From Octopus vulgaris (Eukaryota), in contig OX597825.1 in assembly GCA_951406725.2 (NCBI GenBank), forward strand, positions 11,036,001 through 11,100,000: a stretch of 64,000 nt of DNA, in the 5' to 3' direction. Position 1 is the first letter of the stretch. Every line of letters begins with the position of its first letter. The notes beneath the pieces are model-generated. The model had not been told where the DNA came from. It did no database searches and was given only the letters and a program-made list of their open reading frames with translations. Both the position numbers and the translations under genes were made by a program. This document shows positions 10,141-55,396 of this stretch, one piece after another.

Positions 10141-10891
10141 CACATTTATGTACCTAAGTATATTATATCTGATAGGAATCGGATAAATATTTTTAAATGT
10201 TTCATTTCTTAATATAATATGAAAACACAAAATCTTATTAACAGCAAGTCCTCTTGGACATTCGACAGTTAACCATTATTAATATTATGGTTATTCTTTT
10301 CTAGTTTACTTAACTCTGAATCATCTTATGTAATCTTAACAGCATATGTTAGTTTTAATTATTTCAAATTTTTTTGACCTTATGTATCATGGTTTATAAT
10401 AGGTCATGTTTTTCACATTGTCTTCTTCATTGCTGCTCCCATACAGAAGCTTTGGTTTTCTAAATATAGTGTATTACTCTTTTACTTGTTTCAGTCATTT
10501 GACTGCGGCTATGCTGGAGCAAATTGACCCCAGGACTTATTCTTTGTAAGTTTCTTTGTTGCTCAGGACAGCTGCCACAGTCATTAGATGTTCATGACAC
10601 CTTCATCAGCCTCACCTTTGTTGCTCACTAACACATAATGGTATAAAGATGAAATTCTCACTCCTAACTACAATCCCATATTGCCTATCAAGAGTAACAG
10701 AAGATTTTTTTCCCTTCCATATTACTTTCCGGCTTTTTTCCTTCTGAGCATGCTGATCTTTCATGCTCTAGTGTATTATTGTGTATTTGTTGACATCTTC
10801 CATCACTCTTGTTGCTTGGTCAGAGCAGCTTCCTTGCCTTCTTTTTAGATGATTCCTCTGGTTTCTCTCAGCATCTATTCCTCTATCTTTA

Positions 10892-11358
10892 ATAATAATA
10901 ATAATAATGATAATAATAATAATTGTGTACAGTGCTCAGGTGCACTACAACTCATCTAAAGTGTATATATAATCAGGTGTAGTTTCGGCGGATTTCGGAA
11001 AGCATGAGGGCCTTAAAGGATGCAGTGTCATGGCAGTCAACAACTGATGCAGGCAGTTTATTCCATGCTTCAGCAACTCTGAGCGTGAAAAAATGTTTCC
11101 GAAAGTCATGGGAGTTGTGTTGTTTTCTGACTTTGTAGGCATGTCCACGTGTGTTAGACACATGGAGATCAAAAAGGTGTTCAGTGTTGTTGTTGGTGAG
11201 GTGGTTGATAACTTTGTGGGTGTTTACCAAGTCCGTCGCCAGACGCCGGAGCTTCAGTGAATCCATGCCCAGGGAAACAAGGTGCTCAGAATATGGCAGG
11301 TGTCTGATGGAGGGTATGCGTTTGGTTGCACATCTCTGGACAGATTCCAGGAGGTCAA
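10892..11358 (-). mobile_element. CR1-clade LINE 3' end with (ATT)n tail
   Basis: The ORF reads IDLLESVQRCATKRIP...YSEHL..L.MDSLKLRR..DL...TRGHAYK...RKHFFTLRVAEAWNKLP, the classic CR1 ORF2 C-terminus. Confidence 0.9.
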
Positions 11359-11774
11359 TGCTTCTTCTTGTACTTGTAAAATTACTCAATGCTTCTTCTT
11401 GTACTTGTAAGAGCCTTGTAGTTGCAGCTGTTTTGCTATATCTATCATTATTATTGTTGCTATTTCTGTGACTGCCTTCAGAGGAAATTGAGCTGATGCC
11501 TGCAGTGGATGCAGTGGTGGTGGTGGTGGCATTGGTTGGAACTGTAGCAGATGGCTATGTTGCTTTTGCTTGGCTTCCATATTTTCATGTTTATTGTCTT
11601 GCCGGTGGTGGTGTTGCTGGACATAGCAATTGGTAACTTGTTGTTAAACTGGTGGTAGCAGTGTTATTTTTGTTGTGGTGCTGCCATGCTGATGATGTTG
11701 CTGCTGGTTTTTCTGTTGTTTTCACTGCTACTTACTAGCTGTTATTTTTTTCTGATAATTACTTAAACATCATA

Positions 11775-19796: not shown

Positions 19797-20201
19797 GGCG
19801 CAGGAGTGGCTGTGTGGTAAGTAGTTTGCTAACCAACCACATGGTTCCGGGTTCATTCCCACTGCGTGGCATCTTGGGCAAGTGTCTTCTGCTATAGGCC
19901 CGGGCCAACCAATGCCTTGTGAGTGTATTTGATAGACGGAAACTGAAAGAAGCCCGTCGTATATATGTATATATATGTATGTGCGTGTATGTTTGTGTGT
20001 CTGTGTTTGTCTCCCTAGCATTGCTTGACAACCAATGCTGGTGTGTTTACATCCCTGTCACTTAGCGGTTCGGCAAAAGAGACCGATAGAATAAGTACTG
20101 GGCTTACAAAGAATAAGTCCCGGGGTCGATTTGCTCGACTAAAGGCGGTGCTCCAGCATGGCTGCAGTCAAATGACTGAAATAAGTAAATGAATAAAAGA
20201 A
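19797..20201 (+). mobile_element. tRNA-derived SINE, family A
   Basis: GGCGCAGGAGTGGCTGTGTGGTAAG (A box), GGGTTC..TCCC (B box), CTTGGGCAAGTGTCTT core, internal TA/TG tract, and 3' GACTGAAA.AAGTAAA. Confidence 0.92.
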
Positions 20202-20551
20202 TATATATGTATATATATAATGAGGATAATCATGTTATAGTCACATAAATTTTTATGTGGAGCTAAAATTAAATGCAGTGATATCTGTCCTATTCACAAG
20301 GGTCTCCCTTTAATTTCACACATTTCTTATAATTTCTTGTTCTGAGATGCAAACTCACAACTAGAGTCATTCAGTTAATCAATCCATCCTATCATTATAC
20401 AATCAAGATTTTGATTTTTTGCTTTATGCAATGGTTTTATATAGTTTATCAACTTCAGATTATCACTTTCAGCAATTTTTTTTTTCTATTTTTTAGTTTT
20501 AATCTTTTTTATGTTACATATGTGAAGTTTTTCCAACATTTTTACTTCTTA

Positions 20552-20966
20552 TGCGCAGGAGTGGCTGTGTGGTAAGTAGCTTGCTAACCAACCACATGGT
20601 TCTGGGTTCAGTCCCACTGCGTGGCATCTTGGGCAAGTGTCTTCTGCTATAGCCCTGGGCTGACCAATGCCTTGTGAGTGGATTTGGTAGATGGAAACTG
20701 AAAGAAGCCTGTCGTATATATGTATATATATATATATGTGTGTGTGTGTTTGTGTGTCTGTGTTTGTCCCCCTAGCATTGCTTGACAACCGATGCTGGTG
20801 TGTTTACGTCCCCGTCACTTAGCGGTTCGGCAAAAGAGACTGATAGAATAAGTACTGGGCTTACAAAGAATAAAGTCCCGGGGTCAATTTGCTCGACTAA
20901 AGGCGGTGCTCCAGCATGGACACAGTCAAATGACTGAAACAATTAAAAGAGTAAAAGAGTAAAGAG
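20552..20966 (+). mobile_element. SINE family A
   Basis: Near-identical to 19797-20201, with a (GTAAAAGA)n tail. Confidence 0.92.
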
Positions 20967-21360: not shown

Positions 21361-21771
21361 AAGGGTGGAGGAACTCTTGAGAGTCAACGGCCATCCAATA
21401 AATGTCTTAAGGCCGTATCATGCGCAGGGACATAGAAATAGCCGGACTGAATACCCGATCGCACAGTTAAACCATTGGGAGTGAAGGACTCCTAGCCTTT
21501 GTTAGGGCATCCTTCTAGGAGAAGGTAACTCATGTATCTGGGATAACTCCGATATAAAACCTGCAGCTCAGTGGTTACCGATGATGTTGACTTGTTCTTC
21601 TTTTCAGATTATGGCTGCTGTTGCTTAGTGAGTGGGATTGACTCAGTGCACAGCCTTTCCTCACTTTCAAAAAAAAATCTTCTTGCACAGGCATTGCATG
21701 ATAACAACATTGATTAAGCTTCGTGCAATGGCCATACTCGATAACGAGGGGGCAGCCACCATATATATGTA
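21361..21771 (+). mobile_element. (TA)n-inserted short retroposon with RTE 5'-UTR-like segment
   Basis: Contains GGGCATCCTTCTAGGAGAAGGTAACTC. Its 3' 160 bp recur inverted at 43459-43620, also in (TA)n. Confidence 0.65.
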
Positions 21772-21984
21772 TATATGTGTGTGTGTATATATATATATAT
21801 TATAATAAGAGATATATGTGTGTGTGTGTGTGTGTATGTATATATATGTACATATATATGATATATGTATATATATACATGTATATATTTATGACATATA
21901 TATGTATGTATATATGTATATATGTGTATATGTATATGTATGTTTGTATGTGTATATGTGTATGTATATATATATATATATAAT

Positions 21985-22365
21985 AATAATAAATCTCTGA
22001 GTGAGATATAAACAGTAACTGCTCTATAACATAAGGGGTATCAGCCATCTGAATGTGGCTAGGGACAGGGCGGGGTAGTGGGGGTGTTACTGATGAATTT
22101 AGCCCCAGGCGATCATCAACGTCACCAGAAGGGCTGACACCATCTCGGTGTCCTTGCCAGCCTGCAAAGGGAGATCAGCCTCCCCGAAGATACGGATACT
22201 ACATACAGATCGGTTTCGAGGTATTTGCCTATTACCAACGCATGGTAAGCACCGTTCTTCGTTGAGGGACTTCCTCTACAGGCTGGATATATATGGATTT
22301 TCACAGTAACCACAGTCACTGATGTAGAAAAACCGTTCGACAACAATAATAAATCTCTGAGCGAG
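21985..22365 (-). mobile_element. 360-nt hammerhead element, left copy (360+21 nt)
   Basis: AATAATAAATCTCTGAG(T/C)GAG occurs at 21985 and 22345, exactly 360 nt apart. It is the reverse complement of 22366-22770. Confidence 0.9.
22202..22244 (-). ncRNA. Hammerhead ribozyme, damaged copy
   Basis: Minus strand reads CATGCG TTGGTAA TAGG caaata CCTC GAAA CCGA TC TGTATG. Confidence 0.6.
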
Positions 22366-22766
22366 CCCTGTCCCTAGCCACATTCAGATGGCTGATCCCC
22401 CTTATGTTATAGAGCAGTTACTGTTTATATCTCGCTCAGAGATTTATTATTGTTGTCGAACGGTTTTTCTACATCAGTGACTGTGGTTACTGTGAAAATC
22501 CATATATATCCAGCCTGTAGAGGAAGTCCCTCAACGAAGAACGGTGCTTACCATGCGTTGATAAGAGGCAAATACCTCGAAACCAGTCCGTATGTAGTAT
22601 CCGTATCTTCGGGGAGGCTGATCTCCCTTTGCAGGCTGGCAAGGACACCGAGATGGTGTCAGCCCTTCTGGTGACGTTGATGATCGCCTGGGGCTAAATG
22701 CATCAGTAACACCCCCACTACCCCGCCCTGTCCCTAGCCACATTCAGATGGCTGATCCCCCTTATG

Positions 22767-22770
<4 letters not shown>
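22366..22770 (+). mobile_element. 360-nt hammerhead element, right copy (360+45 nt)
   Basis: CCCTGTCCCTAGCC...CTTATGTTAT occurs at 22366-22410 and 22726-22770, period 360. Confidence 0.9.
22552..22594 (+). ncRNA. Minimal type-I hammerhead ribozyme with U3:A8 core
   Basis: CATGCG TTGATAA GAGG caaata CCTC GAAA CCAG TC CGTATG. Stem I is CATGCG/CGTATG and stem II is GAGG/CCTC. The GUC cleavage triplet ends at 22588. Confidence 0.8.
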
Positions 22771-22809
<39 letters not shown>

Positions 22810-27605: not shown

Positions 27606-28310
27606 GGTGTGATAAGTAAATTACAGCCATTTTTATATTTTTAATTTTGCACATGTGCATTGTTTGTTTTGATTTTGTCAACTACATAGCATTGTAGGGT
27701 CAGTTGGGCACTGTCAGTGAAAAACAGCACCATGCTGTAATTCACTCTGCCAGAAATTTGGAAATGACATGCTGTACTGCTTGGCATTTGCGCTGGAAGC
27801 TCCAATACAAGCATTTCAGAGTGCTAGGGTGTCAATCTGAGGACTTTTTGTGTCTCCAAAACATGTACTGAGAGGGATAAAAATCAAACGTCCAGTCAAC
27901 ATCATGATGTTTGGAGTGATCACTAGAGATGGTGACATTATGCCTCCATTCATCTTCCCACACAGCCTCAGACTCAACCTGGATTACTACATCATGTGTC
28001 TGGAGGAGGTAATGCTGCCCTGCGTCAAGAGGGTGGCTACTGGAAGACCCTATGTCTGGCAACAAGACTCTAGACCATGCCACACATGCAGGAGAACCCA
28101 GACAATTTCTGTGACCACATTACTCCTAACATCTGGCCACCTAACCCTCCAGACTGCAACCCCCTTGATTATTATGTGTGGGGTGTATTTGAGCAAGAGA
28201 CCCACAAAACTCTTTGAAATACCAAAGATGACTGAAGGGAAGGATTATGGCAGTATTCACCAACTTAAACAAGAAGACCATCCAGAAGAGTTGCGGGAGA
28301 TTCCAATCAT
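27601..28310 (+). mobile_element. Tc1/mariner (maT/DD37D-like) transposon remnant with frameshifted transposase
   Basis: IMMFGVITRDG..MPPFIF...YVWQQDSRPCH, then WPPNPPDCNPLDYYVWG in another frame (28134-28184). Confidence 0.85.
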
Positions 28311-30198
28311 GATTTTATTCTTTCTGATTTCCTCAGTCTGGGACATTTCACATCACTACTCTAGTATGTGCCTTTGTCCCAGCTCTTGATTCTGCTGCCT
28401 TCGTCTGCACCTTGTGCCAGGCTGTTGGTTCATCCAGTATTGTGGAAAGGAAGATGTTTAGTTCCTTTTTGAAGACATCTACTTCCACTTCTTAATTTTT
28501 GTGGCAGGGCATTGAAGAGCTGTGGGTCTCACAGCATCTTGCCCCTTGCTACAGTCTTTTGTCATCTAGTACGTAAAGCAATAATGCTTTATGGAGACTT
28601 CAATAACTACAGTAATATTACATTTTGTTTTATTTAAAAAAATAGCTGTTTTTAATGGTTTTTAGAAATGTGTAATATCAAGTATTTATACTATAATATT
28701 TATGACACCAAAGGTATATAATTTATGTTTTTCCATAAACTAAATTATTTTACTGAAGTAATTTTGACTAATTAGATACAGGATTATAACAGTATAAGGG
28801 CCTGTACTTGGAAAGGGATTCAAGTATGGAATATTTAAGTTTTAAGGGCATATGAATATATTTAATTCACATATGTGTTCTAAACAATTAATATTTGAAA
28901 AACCAATCTTAACAAAAGTGAAAGAAAAAGAGAGGAAGCATAAGAAAATTTTATATGTGTAATTTTTTTAATGTATGATTTTTTTTATTATGCTGAGCTT
29001 CAAGATATTATATTTTCTTTAAAATATCTCAAAATTGCAAGCATTCATGCAATGTATTCCCATGAGAGTGTTAGAGTTGTTGATTTAGCAGATTAACAAT
29101 TGAATTACTAAGTATGAACCAGAAGTCAAATACCTACACATTGAAGATAACACTACACAATTAGCATGCACTATAATAGAATAGGTTTGTTGTATTTGTT
29201 ACCATTTCCATTTAATCCTTGGGTTCTGGTTGTGGACCTCATGGGAGTGTGCAAGATAAACCCACCAGAACATAGTAGTGTCTATTCTACACTTTCAATT
29301 GTTGAGTTGGTATTCCAACTATGACCACCCTATCTTTCTTCCTGGCATATTGTTTTTAGAATTCTTCAATGTGTTTTTTTTATAAGATGGATATTTGTGA
29401 GAGATGTGACTGCTATTTTTAGCAAGTTAAGTAGCTGTGTAAAGGCTTTCTTTTCGGCAAGATGTGCATAGATATTCATTCACCTATCACACTGTTGTTT
29501 CAGATAATTTAGATTACATTTCTTCATGTACCTTCTTAATTTATCTCTTTCTGTTAAATCTATTTGTTTTCTAGTAACTTTGTGTTGAATTATTATTAGT
29601 ACTGACTGAAGAATGTCATATTTACATAAAATTGCTTGGAGTGGAATTGAACTCACAAACTTTTATTTCTTTTACACTATTCTTCTGATTTTATTGACTG
29701 TGATATTGTAGAAAATAATGAGGTTGTTTATAGATAACAACAATACATAATTATATATATAAAGGAAAATTTATATATAAAATTTCTTTTATTATTCACA
29801 TACCATCAGAATTATGTAGACCTTGTCCAGTTTAAATGGGTTCAATACTTAAAAATAATACAATAACGATACAACAGAATATCTTCTTATAAAGGTTGTG
29901 AATGTACAGATTTGAAAATGGACAGTAATTCAAGCATAAAAAAATATCAGGTTTCAAATCATAGCAGAAATGTTTGTGTAAAGTTAACCGAGTACTTGTG
30001 TGTTGTAGAACATGTGAAATGGTGTTCTTGAATTAAAGTTGTTTCTTTGAGTGTCATAGATATATAAATAAGTACTAGTGTTTCAACTTCAAAGATTTAG
30101 TGTCATTTTTATTACTTGCTACATAATGTTATTGACAAGGTTTAAAAAAAAAAGATCATATCGGTCAAAATTTCTTCTGATAACATATTACATATAAA

Positions 30199-36789: not shown

Positions 36790-39360
36790 TTAAAAGATAT
36801 ATGTTTTTTATGGACTTCCAGTAATGCATGTGCAATGATACACAGTAATTGACTGGGGTGTTACCTGCAGCGTACCTACACATATGTGCCCCATTGGCTT
36901 TCTTTCCTCTTAACTTTTAAAAAAATGAATATTTTTTAATGAAATTTTCTATTAGGTCATCTAGTATGAAATTTGTAGAAAAGAAAAGAAAGTTTGCTAA
37001 TGTTTGTTTTATAAATACAAGGAATAGTTTTATTCATCAAAGTATGCATCCATATTGTCAGTACACTTTTGCGATTTCAGCAGTAGCTTGTCCAGCCTGG
37101 AACTGTAAAAGCTTGGCAATCTAGAGTCAATAAAATCTTGGAAGGCCTGTTTTACAGCATCATCGAAATTAAATTTTTTTCCTATCAAAAAGTTATCCAA
37201 ATTCTGGAAGAAGTGGTAGTCAGTGCAGGTGAGTATGGTGGATGATAGAGAACTTCCAACTCCAACTCCTATAGTTTCGCCAATGTCATTTTTGCAATGT
37301 GTGGTCTGGCATTGTGTTGCAGTAAAATAGGAATGGATCTGTTGACTAATCTAGGTTGTTTTTTGTAAGCTTCTGCATCATTTGGTCCATGTTTTTTGTA
37401 AGCTTCTGCATCATTCGGCCATGATTGATGAGCCTGGTTTAATGAAATCATAAAGGATCACACCTGCACCAGACCACGAAACACACACCATCAGCTTCTT
37501 TTGGTGAATTCTGCTTTTCGGACTGTGTTTTGGTGGCTTGTCTTTGTCCAGTCATTGTGCTGAAGGTTTATAGTTGTTTATAGTTGGATCCATTTTTCAT
37601 CACATGTTACAATTCGATTAAAAAATTATTAATTTTTGTGATGGAAATGTAGCATAATGCAGGCTTTCAAACGCTGTTTCTGATTTTCATTGAGTTCATG
37701 TGGAACCCACTTATCCAACTTTTTCATTTTATCAATTTGAACTAAGTGAGTCAATATTGTTTGCTTGCTAACACCAAACAACAACAATAATTCATAGGCA
37801 CTTGGAGGTGGATCTGACTTGACGGTGGCTTTCAGTTCGTCATTATCCACCTTTGCTTCTGGTTGACCGTGTTGCTCATTTGTGCGGTCAAAGTTACCAG
37901 AACAAAATTTTTCAAACCAATTTGATACTGTCTGCTGTGTAATAACATTAGAATGAAATACTCCATTAATATTCCGAGGTGTCTGTGATACTGTATTTCC
38001 AAGAAAGAACTCATATTTCAAAACTGTACAAATTTCTGACTTATCCATCTCTAAACAAAAATAACAAAAAAAAGATTTATAAATACTTTATAAAGTACAA
38101 AATGAGTTATAATAAAAAAAAATAGATGTGTCAGCTTTCTAACAAAAAATATTGTAAAAATATAATAATGGTGCAAAATAAGCAGCTGTCAAAGTTTACC
38201 TCTCTAAAAATTTCATACTTGATGACCTAATACAAATATGTTTCAGATAGTGTAAATTCCAATTATAAGGGAATTTGTTGTGAAAAAATTTTCCAAAAAG
38301 AATGTGATGTATGTCAGTATATATGTAAGGTATTCCACCAATTTTTATTGGCATGCTAAATTTTGAAGTAATCATTATCTATATACTCTGAAAAAGTATC
38401 TGCTGAAATTTTCATTTCAAAAACCCATTTTCCCTAAGGTTATAAGGAACAAGGCTGATGTGTATGAAGCTCCTCTCTCCATTCATCCAAAAACATTTTA
38501 TTCACAACAAATTCTGATATAATCAGAATCTACACCATCTGAAGCATACTTGTGGAAGATTTCATTAAAAAAAAACAACATTTTTCTTGAAGTTAGGAGG
38601 AAATAGTTGGTGGTACACATTTGTGTATGTATATCCACTGCTTTAATATGAGCATCTTTGATTATAATTTTAAAAGATACATGTTTATTATGGACTTCTG
38701 GTAACACATGATATACAATAACAAGCCACAGTGTGGTGTTCATGATCAGACTGCAGTTTTTGTGTAATGTGTAGATTCCAGTAATATAAAAATTTGTTGT
38801 GAAAATATTTTTGTGAGGATAATGAGAGGAGTTTCAGAAAATTTACACGAGTTGGTTTTGTTTCCTCATGCCTTTCAGAAAAATTGATATTTTTTCATGA
38901 AGTTTTCTACAAATACCTTTCAGAATGTATGGATTACAATTATTTTGGAATTTAATATGAGAAAGAATTTGGTGGGATAGCACTTGTACATATATACATC
39001 ATGTATATCTACAAAATGAAACTTAGTTTCGAAAAAATTGTGATGTGTGTCAGTATGTATGTGTGTGTGTGCTCACTATTTTTTTCCACATCAAATTCCT
39101 ATATAATCATAATTTACGCACCCTGAAAGACATTCATAGAAATCTTCATTTAAAAATATCCATTTTCCCAAGAGTTATGAAGAAACAAAGCCAATTTGTG
39201 TGAATTTTATGAAACTCCTCTCCTCATTCTCCCCACCAAGAAATTCCAATATAATTGGAATCTACATCATTTGAGGCATGTTTGTAGAAAATTTCATTTA
39301 AAAATATCTATTTTTCTGGAAGTTACAAGGAAACAGTCAATAAGGCATATTTGTGAATAA
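36790..39360. repeat. Old composite direct/inverted repeat (foldback-like) interrupted by the mariner
   Basis: 36880-36951 joined to 38233-38270 is inverted relative to 38510-38630 and 39245-39355. Direct repeats: 38300-38480 ~ 39030-39230 and 36790-36850 ~ 38670-38730. Confidence 0.6.
36952..38230 (-). mobile_element. Full-length (1279 bp) decayed mariner transposon
   Basis: TIRs TTAGGTCATCTAGTATGAAATTT / AAATTTCATACTTGATGACCTAA with TA TSDs. The transposase starts at 38048 (MDKSEI..., WVPHEL, LLQHNARPH, HPPYS) with stops and frameshifts. Confidence 0.93.
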
Positions 39361-42135: not shown

Positions 42136-42552
42136 GGCGCAGGAGTGGCTGTGTGGTAAGTAGCTTGTTTACCAACCACATGGTTCCGGGTTCAGTCCCA
42201 CTGCATAGCATCTTGGGCAAGTGTCTTCTGCTATAGCCTCGGGCCGACCAAAGCCTTGTGAATGGATTTGGTAGACGGAAACTGGAAGAAGCCTGTCGTA
42301 TATATGTATATATATATATATGTGTGTGTGTGTATATGTTTGTGTGCCTGTGTTTGTCCCCCTAGCATTGCTTGACAACCGATGCTGGTGTGTTTACGTC
42401 CCCGTCACTTAGCGGTTCGGCAAAAAGAGACCGATAGAATAAGTACTGGGCTTACAAAAGAATAAGTCCCGGGGTCGAGTTGCTCGAATAAAGGCGGTGC
42501 TCCAGCATGGCCGCAGTCAAAATGACTGAAACAAGTAAAAGAGTAAAAGAGT
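42136..42552 (+). mobile_element. SINE family A
   Basis: Near-identical to 19797 and 20552. Confidence 0.93.
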
Positions 42553-45292: not shown

Positions 45293-45739
45293 TTGTAGTA
45301 AAGATTGTTTGCCAACATAACATGGCAGTCCTGTTTTAGGACTAATGTTGCTGTAATTTAGCCCCAGGAGGCATCGTCTCCAGCTGGCTATAATGACACG
45401 ATCTGTGTCTTACATTTTTGAACAAGGGAATCTAGCATCCCCACTCAACTCAAAACAATATGTGTGTATCACAATATCTGTGTACCCCAGAAATCACGAT
45501 ACACAGATATTGTTTTGAGTTGAGTGGGGATGCTAGATTCCCTTGATCGAATATTTAAGGACACCGATTGTGTTGTATATAATTAAGTCCTACTCAACCA
45601 ATTACCTGAATATTTTTATACACTGCTGTTTATCTTAGATCACTTGCACCCACCTTACATCTTAATGGGGCTAAATTACAGCAACATTAGTCCTAAACCA
45701 GGACTGCCATGTTATGTTGGCAAACAATCTTTACTACAA
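45293..45739. mobile_element. Foldback element with nested inverted arms and a captured local segment
   Basis: Outer arms 45293-45366 / 45666-45739 (74 bp, 1 mismatch) and inner arms ~45390-45470 / 45498-45578. 45580-45667 duplicates 46464-46552. Confidence 0.85.
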
Positions 45740-47678: not shown

Positions 47679-47885
47679 GTATGTGTGTGTGTGTTTGTGT
47701 GTGTTTATGCTGGTATGTTTATGTCCACGTCACTCAGCGGTTCGGCAAAAGAGACCGATAGAATAAGTACTGGGCTTACAAAGAATAATTCCCGGGGTCG
47801 AGTTGCTCGATTAAAGGCGGTGCTCCAGCATGGCCACAGTCAAATGACTGAAACAAGTAAAAGAGAGTAAAGAGTAAAAGAGTAA
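47459..47885 (+). mobile_element. SINE family A (internal deletion)
   Basis: Same head and tail as 42136. Confidence 0.92.
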
Positions 47886-52344: not shown

Positions 52345-52578
52345 TTATTCTCTTACTATTTTACTTGTTTCAGTCATTTGGCTGCAGCACCACCTTTAAT
52401 CGAGCAAATCAACCTCAGAACTTATTCTTTGTAAGCCTAGTACTTATTCTATCAGTCTCTTTTGACGAACTGCTAAGTTACATGGGCGTTAACGCAACAG
52501 CATCGGTTGTCAAGTGAAGTTGGTGGGGGGTGAATAAACACAGACACACACACATATATACATACATACATACACACA
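52345..52578 (-). mobile_element. SINE family A 3' half (split by Helitron)
   Basis: TACTTGTTTCAGTCATTTG...AAACACAGACACACAC, continuing at 54379. Confidence 0.85.
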
Positions 52579-54378
52579 TCTTAATATATAAAATCTGTTC
52601 CGTCTGTCTGTCTGTGCACTTATAACTCAAGTATTGTTCATCTGATTGCGCTGAAATTTTAAACATGGATACATGAGAGAGCTGGGCGTTCTGAAATCTA
52701 AAAAAATTTCCAAAATCGTTAGTATCAAGGTGAGAATTGCTATTTTTGTAATCCTTAATGTCCTGTTTGTTCCACCATTAAAACAACCAGTTGCTCAGAC
52801 AGCTGGCCTATATCATTTCACCAGCAACAAGGGGAGTACAGGATGCCAGTCAGCCAAAAACGTTGCTGTGCTGTCTCTCTTCTTTCCTCTCTCTGTGGGG
52901 TTAATAATCTTAATCTTTAGTTACAGTTTCTCATTCAAACTACATAATAGGCAGAATTGTCAGATTAAGACAGTAGGTTGTTTTGAGGGAGATTTGGCTG
53001 CTATTTCTACCAGGTCTTATGCCTGTATGATGTAACATACTGTCCTATATATTATATATTCCTTATGCTTTCCAAAACTTAGTTACAGATTTTGGTGTAA
53101 GGGGTATCATAAAAATTTTAAAAGGCATCAATCATCACGACACACACCTTCACTCACTCTATCTCTCTTTCTCACCCTCTTTCTCTCCCACATACACATG
53201 CGCAAGCATGCACACATGCACACACACACACACACACACACGTGCACGTCCATTTCATATAAACGTACATACATCTTTCACTTTCTTTCTCTGTTCTTTT
53301 CAGTTTATCTTCTTTCAATTTCTGCTCTCTTGAAATAAAATTTTCACGGATACAACTGCTTACAAAAATAGGGATTAATGTATAATTTCTTTCTATCTTG
53401 ATAATTTTTTGTTAACAATATTGGGAAAAATATGCCACCAAATAAAAGACGTAATCTCTCCAGAAACAAGTATAAAGCAAGGAGGATTGTGGAAAACCGA
53501 AGGCAGGAGTCTGGAGAGAGAAGCTAGATGAGATTTTCTCAACATCAGCAAATGCATGTTGCAGCACTTAATGCTGGATCATTAAATCAATGTTTTAATG
53601 ATTAGACAGAAGTCCAATAGAATAGCTCTCAGAAACAGACTATGTACAAATTCGTTCTTCACAACTCCTGAAGCTATTTTCAGATATGATCCATCCCATT
53701 CTTATAAAAATAATAACTCTGTCCAAATTGGTGTGCTAAACACAAATTGTCTTTTCTGTAGAGCTTTCAAATTTTCAAATGAAACAAATGGTATGTGCTG
53801 CTCAGGCAGTCAGGTAACATTGCCAGCAATATCAGCTCCTTCTCAACCTTTTAGGAATCTTCTAGAAGGCACTTCCATCCAGTCAAAGGATTTTGTGAAC
53901 AATATCAGACAATACAACTCTGCAAATGATATCATTTGGTGCATCTAAAAAGATAGATAAACATGAATTTATGACGTCAAAGTTCAAGGGCAAGTCTGTC
54001 ACCTCATTGGTTCCCTGTTACCCACAAATGAACAACCACAGTTCCTCTAAATTTACTTTGAGTGATGTAGGACAACAAACTCGAAAGAGGTGTCAACATT
54101 TCAGATGATGGGTCGTGTTAGACACAGCACTGACTGCTGCAAAAGAGTGTATATCCACTGACAGCTTCTCGGTGCATTCAAAAATCCCATAACCCTCACA
54201 GATTAGGGCCTGAAATACTCCAAACAGATGCATGGTATGTTGCTTAGTTGAATTAGCCCATCAAATGTTTTGTTGTCAATGCTGCACTTTCCCATATCAC
54301 CTGTTTCAACATAACTGTAATATATTATATACAAACTATGCCATTTTAATCCCAAGCAATGCCAGGTGTCTCTGCTAG
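52579..54378 (+). mobile_element. Internally deleted Helitron (1.8 kb)
   Basis: A|TC start at 52579, decayed hairpin CCCAAGCAATGCCAGG plus CTAG|T end at 54378, no TSD, and a RepHel fragment inside. Confidence 0.85.
53432..54105 (+). pseudogene. Helitron RepHel N-terminal fragment
   Basis: MPPK.KRRNLSR...FRYDP...IG.L...CLFCRAFKFSNETNGMCC.G.V.LP...NNIRQYNSA..M.SFGA...KVQGQVCHLIGSLLP...QFL.IYF, with frameshifts. Confidence 0.88.
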
Positions 54379-55028: not shown

Positions 55029-55396
55029 AGGCGCAGGAGTGGCTGTGTGGTAAGTAGCTTGCTTACCAACCACATGATTCTGGGTTCAGTTCCACTGCGG
55101 GGCATCTTGGGCAAGTGTCTTCTAATATAGCCGACCAATGCCTTGTGAGTGAATTTGTATGTGTGTGTATATGTTTGTGTGTCTGTGTTTGTCCCCCCCC
55201 TAGCATTGCTTGACAACCGATGCTGGTGTGTTTACGTCCCCGTCACTTAGCGGTTCGGCAAAAAAGACCGATAGAATAAGTACTGGGCTTACAAGGAATA
55301 AGTCCCGGGGTTGAGTTGCTCAACTAAAGGCGGTGCCCCAGCATGGCCGCAGTCAAATGACTGAAACAAGTAAAAGAGTAAAAGAGTAAAGAGAGA
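55029..55396 (+). mobile_element. SINE family A (internal deletions)
   Basis: Same head and tail as other copies. Confidence 0.92.

Follow-up and report, generated by a model that had tools for sequence, protein, structure and literature searches.

Non-LTR retrozymes were defined in animals by Cervera and de la Pena (2020; PMC7229834), who demonstrated that the 350–390 nt units of mussels form circular RNAs and who name Penelope-like elements (PLEs) as likely helpers. A preprint (Li et al. 2026, 10.64898/2026.07.22.740005) has since classed these retrozymes, mainly those of vertebrates, as non-autonomous PLE derivatives on the basis of co-occurrence and pLTR homology. The PLEs themselves leave characteristic insertions. 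Craig et al. (PMC8557442) reported partial tandems accompanied by a 5'-truncated copy in inverse orientation, a tail of 30–40 bp that is often confined to one end, and a preference for (TA)n; Arkhipova et al. (PMC3846280) reported the same structure, with duplications of 8–10 bp. In vitro, the PLE protein PAc, for which a dimer is predicted, cleaves AT-rich DNA on both strands and extends each of them, starting at two internal RNA sites that bound the tail, and ribozyme cleavage is dispensable (Frangieh et al., PMC11167929). For the hammerheads, the U3-A8 variant occurs in Schistosoma PLEs, and short palindromic helices function as dimers (PMC4209133).

Here we describe a family of 360-nt units in Octopus vulgaris, starting from one locus in a 64,000-nt stretch of contig OX597825.1 (the window). 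We hold it likely that the family is a non-autonomous non-LTR retrozyme whose genomic copies are made by the reverse transcriptase (RT) and GIY-YIG endonuclease of a Neptune-type PLE. It is a real, new family of a known kind, for which the insertion evidence is unusually clear, while the architecture itself is already known. The literature on octopus or cephalopod hammerheads, retrozymes, Penelope and satellite DNA did not describe it; Repbase, Dfam, subscription journals and supplements lay outside that search and may hold it.

Like the metazoan non-LTR retrozymes (PMC7229834; 10.64898/2026.07.22.740005), the family has a non-coding tandem unit of a few hundred nucleotides with GC below 50%, a single type I hammerhead in each unit, pronounced self-pairing and co-existing PLEs, the mussel units being 350–390 bp long. 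At 360 nt and 48% GC, non-coding and arranged head-to-tail, it lies within the bounds of that class (150–450 nt, GC <50%). Unlike the published retrozymes, to the extent that those accounts describe them, its copies are mostly short, dispersed inverted pairs. Circles and cleavage have been demonstrated for the former, whereas the present family is known from genomic sequence alone; conversely, the published link to PLEs runs through shared ribozymes, co-occurrence and pLTR homology, whereas here it runs through the anatomy of the insertions.

The inverted pair in the window

The features of the locus, in window coordinates, are as follows.

21761..21982: left target flank, a TA-rich microsatellite
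21982..22365 (−): left arm, 384 nt or 1.07 units, 5'-truncated, from unit position 66 to 3' end B (unit 86–89, the tailed end)
22202..22244 (−): decayed hammerhead motif in the left arm, with core A6 altered and three further substitutions
22365..22366: 5'-to-5' junction of the arms, with one shared base
22366..22771 (+): right arm, 406 nt or 1.13 units, 5'-truncated, from unit position 1 to 3' end A (unit 46, the untailed end)
22366..22725 (+): a single 360-nt non-coding unit; 22366 is unit coordinate 1
22375..22394 (+): hairpin directly upstream of end A, retained by each of the three lineages seen
22412..22454 (+): 43-nt 'tail' separating A from B, the two sites at which 3' ends are fixed, with two short predicted hairpins
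22552..22594 (+): type I hammerhead motif of the right arm, U3-A8 core, predicted cut after 22588
22768..22806: right target flank, (TA)n

The first-pass annotation had described this locus as two inverted copies, ~98% identical and joined 5'-to-5' at 22365/22366, each longer than one unit with an exact period of 360. This description was borne out: the arms are 97.66% identical over 384 nt and differ at nine sites, and 360 is the best self-period in both, with 46/46 matches in the right arm and 22/24 in the left. Also as described, both 3' ends merge by microhomology into TA repeats, with a few bases in common, and the unit is GC-richer than its surroundings (48.3% vs 33.8% for the window). 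The earlier statement that it holds no credible ORF agrees with the four to seven stops per turn counted in each of the six frames; an endless frame on the 360-nt circle was looked for as well, and every frame has stops. The unit folds strongly, both as a linear molecule (−123.2 kcal/mol, z −5.1, none of 100 shuffles equally good) and as a circle (−116.6, z −4.6 against 60 shuffles), the latter being a check that the annotation had suggested.

The window locus is typical of the family in that its right arm ends at A and its left arm at B. The 43-nt tail is the part of the unit best conserved across lineages, and the hairpin at 22375..22394 (+) is a candidate RT-recognition element. Both hammerhead motifs are mutated, that of the right arm by one substitution that breaks the stem III palindrome; therefore, the locus is probably a dead product rather than a source. 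Two consecutive intact hammerheads ('active' in the sense of Li et al.) are absent here, where each arm has one, but are seen at other loci, e.g. L023, L024 and L139.

Several other repeats lie in the window. A mariner transposase remnant occupies 37632-38087 (−) (Pfam HTH_48, E 2e-12). The frames 27841-28389 (+), 53586-53948 (+) and 10973-11554 (−), for which the Pfam search gave no match, we take to be Tc1/mariner, Helitron and LINE remnants from their resemblance. Short copies of one repeat, possibly a MITE or SINE end, stand at 20091-20219, 20848-20953, 42439-42545, 47763-47865, 52354-52447, 55276-55380 and 10461-10550, and it also occurs twice, inverted, in L328. The segment 23200-23430 is a high-copy repeat matched by very many contigs in all four sequencing runs compared, and 45351-45399 is a short piece of the 357-nt sister family described below.

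Ends, pairs and hammerheads across the family

The genome searched comprises 2.80 Gb in 227 contigs. A similarity search returned 1,892 candidates, of which the best 40 were scored; exact matches numbered 808 for a 24-mer of the unit, 156 for a 35-nt piece of the tail and 62 for the ribozyme pattern. For an unbiased sample, we took the distinct places among the first 100 of the 808 24-mer matches, which gave 63 loci and, minus two segmental duplicates, 61. The 24-mer lies upstream of both ends A and B, so that neither is favoured. A second set of 60 further loci was chosen by tail (34), by ribozyme (20) or from the similarity lists (6).

The first-pass annotation had read the two copies as differently permuted, and a tabulation of copy ends had been expected to give scattered permutations. 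This holds for the 5' ends, which in the 61-locus sample are dispersed round the whole unit, and fails for the 3' ends. Thus, 85 of 97 arms end at one of two fixed sites 43 nt apart, A (n = 51, unit 40–49) or B (n = 34, unit 84–95), and 55 of those 85 run into (TA)n. In the second set, 91 of 95 arms end at A or B. The copies are therefore not freely permuted integrants of a circle, for which scattered 3' start points at a fixed period would be expected; their 3' ends are PLE tail sites. In length, 25 of the 97 arms exceed one unit and two exceed two units (720 nt); the longest arm known to us has 5.5 units, and tandem loci range from 2 to 5.6 units. At ten of 98 loci screened, all ten outside microsatellites, the insertion is flanked by repeats of 11–14 bp, a count that includes chance matches. 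Two apparent features of the 5' ends were discarded: a pile-up at the hammerhead cut in the first set (8 vs 3.9 expected, p 0.04) was unreplicated in the second (1 vs 1.4), as was a peak at unit 275–291. On contig C31, one insertion has been amplified together with its flanks at seven places (L003, L004, L005, L008, L009, L010 and L017).

Inverted pairs are present at 32 of the 61 loci, and their composition is strongly biased: 23 join an A end to a B end, one is AA, none is BB and eight have one or two atypical ends (p 1.5e-6). The 60 further loci gave 30 AB, no AA, no BB and three others, with the reservation that among the 34 chosen by tail AA, although not BB, was excluded by the choice itself. 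Furthermore, arm lengths within a pair correlate (rho 0.53, p 1e-4, in the 48 of 73 pairs unselected by length), to which subfamily differences could contribute in part.

It has been proposed for rotifer Penelope (PMC3846280) that the inverted arm results from fold-back self-priming on the first strand, with no second priming at the target. Such a process would explain the head-to-head geometry, the near-identity of the arms and the short overlaps at their junctions (0–8 nt in 46/57). In pairs shorter than one unit, however, it can be checked whether one arm could have been copied from the other, and in 26 of 34 such pairs neither contains the other: the A arm extends further 5', whereas the tail is on the B arm alone. 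Fold-back copying is thus ruled out for those pairs, which point to two primings, and as an account of the family we consider it improbable. Taken with the A/B pairing, the correlated arm lengths point to an asymmetric RT dimer.

The hammerhead was identified from its anatomy and from covariation. Rfam returned no hammerhead at the window locus, neither at the gathering score nor at E up to 10, and its miRNA matches reflect the inverted repeat. The earlier claim of one hammerhead per unit stands on the anatomy and covariation of the motif, and is qualified by the lack of an Rfam match and by the mutations in both window copies. The family motif is of type I, with a 6-bp stem I, a 4-bp stem II, a palindromic stem III and a U3-A8 pair (dimer-type). 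Of 25 recurrent variants, 18 have U-A as the 3:8 pair, three C-G, one U-G and three C-A, so that 21 have U-A or C-G, and the pairing of stem I is preserved via G-U, A-U and C-G changes. A palindromic stem III is seen in 239 of 262 occurrences, a count that includes duplicated loci; the palindromes are of five different sequences, and the ribozyme fold therefore appears, as judged from these variants, to be under selection. Cofolding of two copies fits a double hammerhead (−28.5 vs 2 × −10.3 kcal/mol).

The short palindromic helix III and the U3-A8 variant are shared with the minimal, dimer-type hammerheads of PLEs (PMC4209133). Unlike the hammerheads in that account, those of the present unit include C3-G8, C3-A8 and U3-A8 forms within a single family tree. 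A subfamily with the C3-A8 core mismatch, which looks like an intermediate between C3-G8 and U3-A8, has spread, contributing 24 of the 62 exact ribozyme-pattern matches.

Relatives of the family extend this picture. A sister lineage ~79% identical to the unit is seen at L021 and L298. A second, older one (L205-L234, e.g. L232:1288-1728; 2,605 search candidates) has a 357-nt unit with 234 matches over 360, or ~65% identity, a canonical C3-G8 hammerhead with a different palindrome, and the same tail. A third family (L329-L356) has a 362-nt unit whose similarity to ours is weak yet above shuffles, a U3-A8 hammerhead (191 exact ribozyme matches), and two 3' ends ~60 nt apart in (TA)n; its pairs are mostly AB, with at least one BB (L333), which counts against a strict A/B rule. 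All lineages preserve the length, the two ends and the hairpin before A.

Penelope-like elements and the mode of insertion

The genome contains PLEs with intact RT/GIY-YIG frames, in families encoding proteins of 781 and 775 aa. In Pfam, GIY-YIG was above the cut-off for both, and RVT_1 scored 28.9 bits (just under) and 40.2 bits (above), respectively. The 781-aa protein carries ahead of its endonuclease the CxxxxCxxC motif that is given for Neptune and Nematis (PMC8557442). Both families end in (TA)n, at two sites that lie ~30–35 nt apart. A U3-A8 palindromic hammerhead stands ~75 nt before the end of the 781-aa family, while the scan found none in the 3' region of the 775-aa family. Both (L091-L104, L295-L324) are young with many intact frames; in the 781-aa family, the 5' region is long and contains internal repeats. 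The host PLEs and the unit thus have in common their target and two-end habit and no sequence: among 74 PLE loci (from the best 150 of 6,136 and the best 120 of 25,319 candidates), none showed similarity to the unit, whether as pLTR homology or at the terminus of an autonomous family. A PLE partner is therefore inferred, and from a small share of the PLE candidates.

The family units themselves bear the marks of PLE-mobilised elements, namely two fixed 3' ends with a 43-nt tail, an inverted truncated partner and an AT-rich target with a duplication, which makes the unit a likely parasite of PLEs. They resemble the insertions of EN+ PLEs (PMC8557442; PMC3846280; PMC11167929) in the partial tandem, the inverted 5'-truncated copy, the AT-rich or (TA)n target, the short duplication and the one-ended tail, but the unit has no frame and its tail is 43 nt rather than 30–40 bp. 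In addition, a near-strict pairing of one A with one B, with correlated arms, is counted here, whereas the start site of PAc was equal between strands in vitro (PMC11167929). Like non-autonomous Chlamys elements such as MRC1 (PMC8557442), the units are non-coding, multicopy, head-to-tail and apparently PLE-mobilised; unlike them, they have a hammerhead and no detected similarity to a partner, whereas the Chlamys elements are described as sharing 3'-end similarity with autonomous partners and as belonging to a clade without canonical hammerheads.

Given that the PLE termini have the same ends, targets and hammerhead type, the unit might be merely the 5'-truncated pseudo-LTR of an autonomous PLE so far unseen. 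The first-pass annotation had named an origin of the copies as the pseudo-LTR of a long coding Penelope element as one finding that would overturn its reading, and no such element emerged: with three PLE proteins as tblastn queries, no PLE frame adjoins a family unit and no RT and GIY-YIG frame is joined to the repeat in 190 locus records (duplicates and the sister family included) and 60 more, and the PLE pieces near units are separated from them by a TA run or at least 240 nt. Moreover, head-to-tail units reach 5.5 per arm with no frame in between, and the sister lineages (~79% and ~65% identity) and the distant one retain a non-coding unit of 357–362 nt. A pseudo-LTR origin is thus very improbable. 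Less credible still is an assembly artefact, a MITE or a DNA-level satellite. A long inverted repeat flanked by microsatellites would suit any of these, but the same architecture recurs with different breakpoints at more than 70 independent loci, target duplications are present, and the arms at the window locus differ at nine sites.

Several candidate partners were rejected. The tail match in L098 is a separate short insertion; in L200, L245, L298, L308 and L321, the two are neighbours within a common TA tract or lie further apart; in L350, the 3.9-kb spacer of a pair contains no PLE frame; and the tail, when aligned with 30 PLE termini, gave an unconvincing z of at most 3.7. In L232:879-1728, a PLE RT fragment and a copy of the 357-nt lineage are fused directly, at the 5' end of the copy, within one TA-bounded insert; this chimera is possibly a template switch that names the helper, although it is a single case and could instead be a nested insertion. 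At L331:840-1900, a third-family arm abuts a fragment of an N-terminal PLE frame, and the same junction recurs, inverted, ~900 nt off.

The insertion we propose would run as follows. The endonuclease would nick both strands of an AT-rich site, ~11–13 bp apart, and two RT active sites, probably in one dimer, would prime at the two nicks. Copying would begin within the RNA, at A for one active site and at B for the other. Each would then move backwards on a template that extends unbroken beyond one unit; the two would stop at about the same time, and the ends would be joined via 0–8 nt of microhomology. It speaks against this scheme that both ends share a few bases with TA, whereas PAc starts at a site non-homologous to the cut DNA (PMC11167929). 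The first-pass annotation had an RT prime on both strands of a broken TA tract. Priming on two strands and copying past one unit are upheld, most likely by a PLE enzyme; the break is better ascribed to a PLE endonuclease, given the 11–14 bp duplications, than to chance. Its further suggestion, that a retrozyme-like unit was mobilised by a Penelope-like RT, is likewise supported as likely, now from the anatomy of the insertions.

Circular or linear template

The locus had also been called the footprint of a circular RNA, which by itself it is not: arms longer than one unit are expected from a linear multimer as much as from a circle. The template could be a circle, arising when dimer-type hammerheads cleave the RNA and it is ligated, or a head-to-tail transcript that stays uncleaved, with about even odds.

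That the same enzyme reads a monomeric circle round more than once has, in our judgment, not far from an even chance. Predicted cut sites are crossed at least once by 88 of 145 arms, at least twice by 21 and up to six times, and deletions at the cut site (15/1,210) compare with 377/50,035 overall. Such crossing, with no replicated accumulation of ends at the cut, suits a circle and an uncleaved multimer alike. Stopping rates of 0.41, 0.67 and 0.30 per 100 nt in the first turn, the second and beyond reveal no hard cap, and the mussel retrozymes of 350–390 nt form circles (PMC7229834). Subfamily variants are in all units of an array, and units within a locus differ by a median of 1.6% compared with 5.3% to a typical other locus; this uniformity calls for some monomer-to-multimer step. 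Yet the difference to the nearest other locus is 1.4%, and that within is the lower in only 10 of 34 loci (L021 and L129, double insertions, excluded). Similarly, ten locus-private variants are common to units at six loci, but 93 outside L021 are unshared, and a two-base variant of L139 is in two of seven units that are non-adjacent, which a single circle would not give. PAc, furthermore, did not require hammerhead cleavage for insertion in vitro (PMC11167929).

The unit-specific pattern in L139 is instead what would be left if a tandem source were transcribed into a linear head-to-tail RNA that stays uncleaved, with the hammerhead weak or acting at another step; we hold this template a serious contender, at somewhat below even chances. 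Tandem sources of 2–5.6 units are present, most arms are shorter than two units (only 2/97 exceed 720 nt), and the C3-A8 mismatch subfamily has been able to spread. Against it, 5' truncation alone would shrink arrays in each generation, so that a rebuilding step is required; there is no fixed 5' limit marking a transcript start; and the five stem III palindromes speak for a ribozyme fold under selection. A-to-I editing of a circular template was considered and dropped, as the shared private variants have no A>G excess. The unit is covered by assembled contigs from sequencing runs presumed to be RNA, two of which bridge the 360 junction, fitting circle or tandem alike; the unique flanks have no cover in three presumed-RNA runs and are covered in a DNA-like run. 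This cover reveals nothing of expression level, strand or circularity and is given no weight here.

Whichever template is used, animal retrozyme insertion has so far been a proposal, with PLEs a 'strong candidate' in the words of PMC7229834, and in the family described here a hammerhead unit that has no frame bears every mark of PLE insertion. The family further offers two countable rules, one tailed arm paired with one untailed arm and correlated arm lengths, which are testable in the existing in vitro PLE assay. A bolder reading, which we put forward tentatively and regard as rather unlikely, is that the octopus harbours a long-lived superfamily of 357–362 nt circular RNA replicons, of at least three lineages diverged to 65% identity and beyond, that was never the pLTR of a present helper; it would depend on nothing but structural mimicry to recruit the Neptune-type RT dimer, and rolling-circle reverse transcription would proceed from two asymmetric starts, one per strand, on a shared clock. 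If that were true, the A/B rule would be a general, hitherto uncounted property of PLE integration.
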